The notes under the pieces were generated by a model. The model was not told where the DNA came from and ran no database searches. It saw nothing but the letters and a program-made list of their open reading frames with translations. 524 bases of DNA, taken from the NCBI RefSeq assembly GCF_003334385.1, contig NZ_QOWN01000171.1; one strand, written 5' to 3'. Position numbers and translations under genes: made by a program. Shown here piece after piece: positions 1-524 of this stretch. How positions within the stretch are numbered: position 1 is the stretch's first letter; every line of letters begins with the position of its first letter. Origin of the DNA: Escherichia coli. GTDB taxonomy: Bacteria > Pseudomonadota > Gammaproteobacteria > Enterobacterales > Enterobacteriaceae.

Positions 1-1
1 T

Positions 2-25
2 CCGCGATCACTGCGGGATTTTTTT
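2..25 (+). terminator. Putative intrinsic-terminator-like element: short GC hairpin followed by a T7 tract, oriented for plus-strand (antisense/convergent) transcription. Truncated by the window edge, so highly tentative.
   Basis: Plus strand 2..16 is ccgcg-atcac-tgcgg: pairs 2-16, 3-15, 4-14, 5-13 are Watson-Crick and 6-12 is a G-U wobble, with a 5-nt loop. It is followed by 'ga' and then ttttttt (19..25). The stem is short and may extend past the window. On the minus strand the same region reads A-run then hairpin, which is not terminator polarity for the gpI-like transcript. Confidence 0.25.
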
Positions 26-32
26 ATTCTTT

Positions 33-524
33 TTACCCCTGCCGCCCGATAACCACGACCTTTCCGCCCCCGCCTTCATCACGGGTACTGATGTCCTGGG
101 ATATACGGCGGGAGCCAACCAGCATTTCCCCGTAAGGCACCGGCATCGGGTTACCCTGGGCAATCATGTTGTCCAGTGACGAAAAATACGTGTTCTGTCT
201 GCCGTTATCCGTTGCGCGGTAATCCGGTGTTTTTGCCTTCGGGGCCAGCATCTGGGCCACACCACCCAGAATCATGCTGGCTCCAAGTGAAAACAGCATC
301 GTGGTGGCAGAAAAACCACCGGCTGCCAGGGCTGAACCCCATAACGCCATCGAGGCACCGGCAGTGAGGAAAGAGCCCACGATGGCTGCCGCCCCCAGCA
401 CAATCTGCAGTCCACCCTTTCCGGCCCCGGCCAGTCGCGGCACAATGTGGATGACCGTTCCCTCACCCAGCTGTTCGTGAAGACGGGCGTACACCGCCTC
501 CGGTGCCGTGTCATCACCGGCAAT
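33..524 (-). CDS. Tail tip assembly protein I, phage lambda gpI family; partial, with the N-terminal part beyond the window edge at 524. TAA stop at 33..35.
   Basis: The 153-aa ORF on the minus strand (33..494) reads ...GTVIHIVPRLAGAGKGGLQIVLGAAAIVGSFLTAGA...LFSLGASMILGGVAQMLAPKAKTP...DNGRQNTYFSSLDNMIAQGN...YGEMLVGSR...DEGGGGKVVVIGRQG. This is collinear with, and closely similar to, the C-terminal roughly two-thirds of lambda tail assembly protein I as I recall it (...GAVIHIVPRVAGAKSGG.FQIVLGAAAIAGSF...LFSLGASMVLGGVAQMLAPKARTP...DNGKQNTYFSSLDNMVAQGN...YGEMRVGSR...VVVIGR). I translated codons 495..524 by hand: the frame stays open (...IAGDDTAPEA-V-YARLHEQL), and the 'M' at 492..494 is a GTG (plus-strand cac), so the true start is upstream of the window. 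The stop at 33..35 (plus tta = TAA on minus) was checked by hand. Confidence 0.9.
   Translation of the reverse strand: MAGDDTAPEAVYARLHEQLGEGTVIHIVPRLAGAGKGGLQIVLGAAAIVGSFLTAGASMALWGSALAAGGFSATTMLFSLGASMILGGVAQMLAPKAKTPDYRATDNGRQNTYFSSLDNMIAQGNPMPVPYGEMLVGSRRISQDISTRDEGGGGKVVVIGRQG

Follow-up and report, generated by a model that had tools for sequence, protein, structure and literature searches.

The stretch of DNA analyzed here, called the window throughout, consists of 524 nucleotides (nt) from Escherichia coli (contig NZ_QOWN01000171.1 of RefSeq assembly GCF_003334385.1), and it carries parts of two convergent genes. The following explanation accounts best for both together, and we hold it with very little doubt: positions 33-524 on the minus strand encode the C-terminal 163 residues of a homolog of the phage lambda tail tip assembly protein gpI (gene I), and positions 1-25 on the plus strand are the 3' end of a gene for a small RNA (sRNA) of the PasB family. 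The two are separated by the 7-nt spacer ATTCTTT (26-32), read directly from the sequence, which lies between the U-tail of the sRNA and the stop codon of gene I. The window can be confidently placed in a lambdoid tail module, and its unannotated left-edge 25 bases belong, on this reading, to a regulatory RNA.

The minus-strand frame is free of stops over 163 sense codons (524 to 36) and closes with TAA at 33-35; it runs past the right edge of the window, leaving the 5' end truncated. A first-pass annotation, made from the letters of the window, had claimed a diverged homolog of lambda gpI at 33-524 on the minus strand, and these coordinates are exact; the accompanying list of open reading frames (ORFs) shows gene I only as 33-494 from an internal GTG, because ORFs crossing an edge are unlisted. 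The window holds the 3' 72% of the gene (163 of about 226 codons plus the stop codon), as assigned from the open frame and gpI homology; gene I of the relatives extends about 190 nt beyond position 524, corresponding to the 63 codons that the window does not include.

The claimed homology is borne out by each sequence comparison with lambda. Using phmmer against PDB sequences, residues 1-161 of the fragment were aligned with residues 64-223 of lambda "Tail tip assembly protein I" (8iyk_I, E = 2.3e-64), the alignment spanning all the remaining length of gpI, and the same match was found in the identical chains of 8iyl, 8k35 and 8xcg. BLASTP against gpI translated from J02459, a comparison suggested in the first-pass annotation, gave 109 identities in 162 positions (67%) with three gapped positions (E = 2e-69). 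The fragment also matches the PHROGs family phrog_32, "tail assembly protein" (E = 7.7e-55), and 161 of its 163 residues are identical to those of the RefSeq "tail assembly protein" WP_047665647.1. A Pfam search, suggested likewise, turned out differently, as the 163-residue fragment has no match at E <= 0.001. This is because the gpI model PF06805 covers the N-terminal domain only, which lies mostly outside the window: the portion within it is the last ~34 residues of the domain, about 34 of 83 model positions, and a full-length relative does match PF06805. Among the curated tail-protein models of NCBIfam, 0 families scored above the cut-off for the fragment, despite which full-length relatives are named "tail assembly protein" by the Prokaryotic Genome Annotation Pipeline.

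The fragment can be divided by alignment to lambda gpI into four parts. Codons 1-37 (414-524, minus strand) correspond to gpI 64-100 and form the C-terminal end of the Lambda_tail_I (PF06805) domain, since PF06805 covers residues 15-97 of a 226-residue relative and the window starts at its residue 64; this region of gpI is unresolved in the lambda cryo-electron microscopy structures (PMC11101478, PMC10721106). Codons 38-96 (237-413, minus strand) form a Gly/Ala-rich hydrophobic segment equivalent to the helices H1/H2 of gpI (about 101-158), as judged from hydropathy and from alignment to lambda QIVLGAAAIAGSF...GILFSLGASMVLGGVAQ; Kyte-Doolittle means over 19 residues form a plateau of 1.1-1.85 over residues 33-95. 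Codons 97-113 (186-236, minus strand) are, by homology only, the equivalent of the gpI plug (gpI 159-175), with KAKTPDYRATDNGRQNT aligned to KARTPRIQTTDNGKQNT. Codons 114-163 (36-185, minus strand) comprise the C-terminal beta-strand region (42-185, gpI 176-223, by alignment) and two extra residues, QG. The series of H1/H2, plug and beta-strands is therefore present at the sequence level when the fragment is aligned to gpI 101-223 residue by residue, and conservation with lambda is highest in the plug and beta regions.

The role of gpI is known from work on lambda. The protein has been detected in the virion by mass spectrometry, and residues 135-223 have been modelled as a trimer in the lumen of the tail tip, where the plug of the trimer supports the gpH coiled coil and guards against premature release of gpH and DNA; that gpI is required for tail assembly and forms a trimer in the tail tip is known for lambda only (PMC10721106). 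The closed lambda tail resolves gpI from residue 101, with the hydrophobic helices H1/H2, then the plug (159-175) and then beta-strands, and in the open tail bound to LamB the hub domains have moved outward, the plugs are apart and H1/H2 are disordered; the authors hypothesized that H1/H2 insert into the outer membrane (PMC11101478). The C-terminal beta-strands thread between gpJ hub domains by beta-sheet augmentation (PMC10721106, PMC11101478). By analogy with these published structures, three copies of the gpI encoded in the window would sit inside the tail-tip cone, their C-terminal beta-strands would pass between the hub domains of gpJ, the central fibre protein, and the short plug would close the lumen beneath the coiled coil at the C-terminus of the tape-measure protein. 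When the receptor is bound, the hub domains of gpJ would swing out and the plugs would separate, after which the hydrophobic Gly/Ala-rich helices would be freed towards the outer membrane and the DNA exit would open. The homology, the intact frame and the selection described below are our own findings; the mechanism is carried over from lambda.

Compared with lambda gpI (PDB 8IYK, 8IYL, 8K35, 8XCG and 9E7M), the window protein is collinear from residue 64 to the C-terminus and has the same hydrophobic Gly/Ala-rich segment, plug equivalent and C-terminal beta region. It differs in 33% of residues, in small indels near gpI 103 and 133-134 and in its two additional C-terminal residues, and synonymous divergence (dS) from lambda is saturated at about 1.5, in agreement with the claim that the protein is diverged from lambda. 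The plug domain of phage T5 pb3 is likened by function only: it is also a trimeric plug at the same site of the lumen with a hydrophobic part facing the membrane (PMC10721106), whereas it is a domain within a hub protein and not the product of a separate gene. The DNA of the window is much closer to two groups of relatives, being 99.0% identical to that of WP_047665647.1 and its kin and 96.8% identical to that of "tail tip assembly protein I" of phage PhiR5_1 (161 and 160 of 163 residues, respectively). Every gpI-family feature that can be checked on the fragment is present, and the remaining ones are found in near-identical full-length relatives; on the alignments, the gene is an ordinary, already-known member of the lambda gpI family. 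The gene by itself therefore adds nothing new, as roughly one in three complete E. coli genomes has a tail-tip gene of this kind and structures of the lambda homolog have been solved.

At the left edge, the plus strand of positions 1-25 reads TCCGCGATCACTGCGGG followed by T7, with a terminator-like site at 1-17 directed into the 3' end of gene I. These 25 nt comprise part of a terminator loop, the 3' arm CTGCGGG and the U7 tail, and are identical to nt 59-83, the last 25 nt, of PasB, so that about 30% of the RNA lies in the window. PasB is an 83-nt RNA (NC_011601.1 1466343->1466261) from prophage PP6 of enteropathogenic E. coli (EPEC) E2348/69 (E2348CN_0006), listed in Table S6 of Pearl Mizrahi et al. 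(2021, PMC8550237). It has been confirmed by Northern blot, is more abundant under non-activating conditions and has 37 interactions detected by ligating and sequencing interacting RNAs (RIL-seq) (PMC8550237). The RNA drops strongly without Hfq, with log2 fold changes of -6.8 and -2.4, which we read as hfq mutant versus wild type (Table S2, PMC8550237). The Northern probe for PasB, AATCCCGCAGTGATCGCGGAGCT, has 23 nt, 20 of which are the reverse complement of window positions 1-20. A 2026 preprint of Zhu, Shabalina and Storz describes PasB as embedded in a phage structural gene operon, usually in single copy, and as common outside EPEC and enterohaemorrhagic E. coli (EHEC).

The surroundings of both features are known from relatives, since the window's own flanks lie outside the available sequence. 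We mapped the locus of PasB to the spacer between genes I and J of PP6. Complete copies of PasB lie at 6262-6344 (minus strand) of relative L004 and at 8943-9025 (plus strand) of L001, the locus of E. coli S1-CAM-02-A, in both cases convergent with gene I. In L001, the full hairpin is CCCGCAG-loop-CTGCGGG with a 7-bp stem followed by U7; its 5' arm would fall to the left of the window. A sigma-70 promoter, TTCACA-16-TATAAT (11 of 12 positions matched), lies about 100 nt upstream on the sRNA strand of the relatives, and this promoter, a TTAATCTTC core and one or another allele of the RNA body were present in all relatives examined, to the left of window position 1. The spacer ATTCTTT is identical in L001 and in loci L005-L007, and differs in E2348/69 PP6 and PhiR5_1. 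Positions 1-25 on the plus strand thus appear to be the intrinsic terminator and U-tail end of an Hfq-dependent PasB-family sRNA gene in a moron-type slot between I and J. With a sigma-70 promoter of its own, the sRNA gene would be read in the direction of gene I, and its transcript would stop 7 nt before the gene I stop codon. Hfq dependence and trans targets of the family have been published for E2348/69 and Sakai only.

Other known sRNAs were considered for this site and rejected. AgvB and AsxR (Tree et al., 2014) sit downstream of PR' at the Q/stx moron site, and PasA, PasC and PasD are near Q, holin-lysozyme or esterase genes. Rfam covariance models, applied at a permissive E-value to the window and to the I-J spacer of L001, gave nothing near a gathering score: scores were at chance level and far under gathering (for example, Hrs1 and SSRC34_2), and AgvB (RF02702), AsxR (RF02703), Esr41 and STnc100 had no match in either sequence. 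No RefSeq feature is annotated under the sRNA match among the matches listed.

The gene order of the module was examined in relatives, where it agrees with the first-pass annotation in placing gene I between K and J on one strand in all five close relatives examined. In E. coli S1-CAM-02-A (L001, 99.0% identical), the minus-strand order is V-G-T-H-M-L-K-I-J-lom-tail fibre, annotated in turn as major tail, chaperones G/T, tape measure, M, L, "C40 family peptidase", gene I, gpJ, Lom-family and tail fibre. The same order is found in phage PhiR5_1, whose genes are named as lambda V-G-T-H-M-L-K-I-J-lom, in prophage PP6 of EPEC E2348/69 and in Sp14 and Sp15 of strain Sakai (loci L010 and L009). K had been foreseen as a protein with JAB and NlpC/P60 domains, and its homolog in a relative indeed contains both (Prok-JAB PF14464, E 9e-15; NlpC/P60 PF00877, E 3e-13). 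The distances came out otherwise. K, expected just past position 524, is upstream of I in relatives, but the first 190 nt or so beyond that position still belong to gene I, which shares 103 nt with the end of K in a different frame, the K stop codon being ~87 nt past 524. J, expected just past position 1, is the left neighbour in relatives, but about 208-313 nt separate position 1 from its start codon, which is reached across a spacer of 240 bp (PP6, PhiR5_1, Sakai) or 344 bp (L001, L005-L007). The order K-I-J and the 103-nt overlap of I and K are those of lambda, whereas the I-J spacer of lambda is 60 bp and that of the relatives additionally holds the oppositely oriented sRNA gene, the 3' end of which corresponds to window 1-25.

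Several points weigh against the reading given above. K, J, the sRNA body and the promoter are known through relatives and not from the window's own flanks. The window includes only 25 of the ~83-98 nt that make up the sRNA, and since these 25 nt are common to at least four body alleles, the source copy could in principle be decayed. The folding energy of PasB is unremarkable (z -0.7 to -1.1 for the 83-nt form). The fragment itself has no significant Pfam or NCBIfam match, the Pfam case being explained by model coverage as described above. Lastly, the tail module of L001 is flanked by insertion sequences (IS) of the IS21 family, and the prophage from which the window comes may be defective though the gene is intact.

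This last point leads to the rival explanation that survives best, namely that a cryptic, defective prophage carries the ORF as a relic, which is still intact by chance or because decay is recent and no longer serves to build tails. For the window DNA, matches were found at 5,938 places, spread over 1,910 of the 5,426 complete E. coli genomes (best identity 99.0%), and in 151 phage records, mostly of Stx-converting and other lambdoid Escherichia phages, with no exact match in these collections; the matched genes are annotated as "tail assembly protein" or "tail tip assembly protein I". As the matches are lambdoid prophages and phages and amino acid identity to gpI is 67%, the gene can be assigned to a lambdoid phage or prophage other than lambda itself, as the first-pass annotation had proposed, from E. 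coli or a very close relative. A relic would be consistent with three observations: gene I reaches up to 11 copies per E. coli genome, PasB occurs more often outside PHASTER-defined prophages than other Pas sRNAs (Zhu et al.), and the tail module of the closest relative, L001, is bracketed by IS21-family elements (ISSso4-like and ISEc10-like, L001 1-2255 and 16289-18524), one directly after the major tail gene and the other after the tail-fibre genes, so that the L001 prophage is probably rearranged or defective. On the other side, the fragment has 163 codons without a stop or frameshift, and isolated phages that form plaques, such as PhiR5_1 and vB_EcoS-569R3, carry near-identical genes. The ratio of non-synonymous to synonymous divergence (dN/dS) of the fragment is 0.235 against L001, 0.084 against PhiR5_1, 0.095 against E2348/69 and 0.151 against lambda, low against near and distant relatives alike, with 12 synonymous and 3 non-synonymous changes from PhiR5_1 and 14 and 4 from E2348/69 PP6; the gene is therefore under purifying selection. 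Taken together, we consider a relic unlikely while giving it appreciable weight, and it bears on the state of the host element and not on the identity of the gene.

We regard as very improbable a second rival, in which no sRNA gene is involved and the hairpin and T-run at 1-25 are the transcription terminator of gene I or of the tail operon, or a hairpin arisen by chance. The hairpin does lie 7 nt from the gene I stop codon, and the window itself holds only a 6-bp partial hairpin, one such site being close to the shuffle expectation of 0.6. However, the T-run follows the hairpin on the plus strand only, which is antisense to gene I; the strand of gene I itself has an A-run before the hairpin and GACAGACAAATG after it, so that it cannot terminate gene I transcription. 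Because no T-run follows it on that strand, the hairpin should not stop transcription of the late operon, of which J is a downstream member. Chance is opposed by the exact 25-nt match to an RNA seen by Northern blot and RIL-seq, by the 11/12 promoter at the right distance in relatives and by the conservation of promoter, core and terminator over 44 sequence versions among the matches listed from viral contigs. It is hardly credible that a different gene is encoded on the plus strand or in another minus-strand frame, or that the gpI-like frame is not the sole coding frame, as the ORFs of 63, 68 and 83 amino acids in other frames (176-367 plus, 274-480 plus and 272-523 minus, respectively) are short ones of the kind expected in GC-rich coding DNA, none of the three matched any PHROG family at E <= 0.1, and the mostly synonymous changes in the gpI frame argue against a second constrained frame.

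For the PasB-family sRNA gene, the I-J slot contains one promoter and the same last 25 nt joined to differing bodies. Among complete E. coli genomes, 961 have canonical PasB, at 1,007 places in total, and 16 phage records contain it as well; a sibling body, first found in PhiR5_1, is commoner, occurring at 1,749 places in 1,253 genomes. Sakai Sp14 and Sp15 have a third allele, in which the terminator loop is GCTAACT compared with GCGATCA in the window. Alleles are located at 1128-1224 of L009 and in L010 (the Sakai Sp15 and Sp14 spacers), at 7929-8025 of L002 and at about 350-475 of L005-L007. The 3' arm of the terminator has at least 125 matches in viral contigs, and 111 of the 125 listed adjoin a convergent gpI-like ORF; the 107 complete copies among the matches listed represent 44 sequence versions. 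The copies share the -35 region, a TATAAT-like -10 box, CTGCGTTA, a U-run, AAYTCC, TTAATCTTC and the terminator, and differ between these elements. The terminator stem is invariant in all copies and the scan pattern fixed its 3' arm, so that covariation is uninformative. Prevalence of PasB obtained by BLAST with one allele would thus underestimate the family.

The allele of the window was sought from its 7-nt spacer and loop, and this failed since the same junction occurs with both main alleles: the exact junction at 1-60 was found at 1,028 places, with the sibling allele in three sampled genomes and with canonical PasB in the best match, L001. Among the matches listed, viral-contig copies sharing window 1-27 had the sibling body (allele 2) in 28 of 61 cases and canonical PasB in ~25 of 61. 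On its bases, the window is compatible with canonical PasB or with the sibling allele, and the Sakai type alone is excluded by the loop sequence. The window therefore resembles PasB of E2348/69 in its terminal 25 nt, strand, I-J position and convergence with gene I, and differs from it in carrying only the terminator end, which is also the end of the commoner sibling allele; the source genome may carry the sibling.

The Sakai allele connects the slot with RNAs reported earlier under another name. Tree et al. (2014) described EcOnc22, EcOnc23 and EcOnc24 in Sakai Sp15, Sp14 and Sp11, antisense to tail genes, with a Northern band of ~85 nt that is destabilised in an hfq mutant (PMC4104026). The Sakai allele contains an exact 23-nt target for their probe, GGGAGAGAACGATGAAGATTAAC..., immediately ahead of the terminator stem; location in the I-J spacer was verified here for Sp15 and Sp14 only. 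Because the EcOnc probe targets the Sakai allele at the I-J slot, EcOnc22-24 and PasB appear to be alleles of a single locus, a conclusion that is well supported. The "homologues in EHEC" entry for PasB is blank in the 2021 table (PMC8550237), and EcOnc is absent from the 2026 preprint. The EcOnc RNAs share with the locus of the window the I-J slot, strand, promoter layout, the TTAATCTTC core and the CCCGCAG/CTGCGGG-U7 terminator; their body and terminator loop differ, and the window is not this allele. The published coordinates of the EcOnc22 cluster (2902714-2902774) lie ~130 nt to the left of the probe target in NC_002695.2 (L009 1015-1075 versus 1175-1197). Taken at face value, they fall on a hairpin next to the J start and not on the sRNA body, and were not used, so that the link is based on the probe sequence; the offset may reflect a change of assembly version. 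Both the gpI gene and the PasB/EcOnc22-24 locus have already been described.

A broader proposal is that the I-J spacer is a slot for sRNA cassettes, in which the promoter, core and terminator stay the same while bodies are interchangeable, and that the RNA has an additional cis action on the late tail mRNA. As a whole we consider this proposal improbable. Its shared-locus part is well supported, and its cis-antisense part is purely conjectural: such action is conceivable given the perfect complementarity of the RNA to the I-J section of the late tail mRNA. If this were true, the sRNA could silence leaky read-through into J, lom and tail fibre in lysogens, or direct processing of the late transcript, and this effect would be additional to the Hfq-dependent trans targets. 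In E. coli O157:H7 F8492 (L008 1-352, plus strand), the I-J slot contains a prophage gene for superoxide dismutase, sodC, in the same orientation as the sRNA; the body and terminator of the sRNA follow sodC directly, and the TATAAT promoter is replaced, no such box being present. The presence of sodC fits a moron insertion site, and the sRNA of F8492 might be made from the 3' untranslated region of sodC or might share its terminator with sodC.

The relatives also provide information on the start of gene I. In RefSeq and GenBank they are annotated as proteins of 193 residues starting from a GTG at the K stop codon, as is WP_047665647.1 and its kin, none of which matches the window exactly. The 33 codons upstream of this GTG (L001 9615-9713, minus strand; window-equivalent 615-713, outside the window) are open and homologous to lambda gpI up to an ATG (MATTNAFCLASPPLARICLHGNLQRFGRR... 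compared with lambda MAATHTLPLASPGMARICLYGDLQRFGRR...), which gives a product of 226 residues. On a full-length relative, PF06805 is matched at positions 26-83 by the 193-residue form (E 1.8e-9) and at positions 3-83 of 83 by the 226-residue form (E 9.4e-16). With the 226-residue start, the overlap of I and K has the same 103 nt as in lambda (14773-14875). Because the lambda homology continues upstream and the coverage of PF06805 becomes full, the 226-residue product is favoured, and the annotated start is probably too far downstream by 33 codons. Database starts that cut 33 N-terminal residues matter for modelling of the N-terminal domain.

Two further features of the I-J spacer were observed in relatives. 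A GC-rich hairpin, CAGGCACC...GGTGCCTG, is conserved between the sRNA promoter and the J start (L004 ~6425-6455; L009 1041-1064), and spacers of the 344-bp type have a different, longer hairpin at the equivalent place (L001 8791-8822). The hairpin upstream of J has a T-rich tail on the tail-gene strand and looks like a terminator inside the late operon. In four viral contigs (L015, L030, L035 and L081), two sRNA terminator motifs are found 213-453 nt apart on the same strand, and these pairs may represent tandem sRNA genes, or an sRNA gene together with another moron in the slot.

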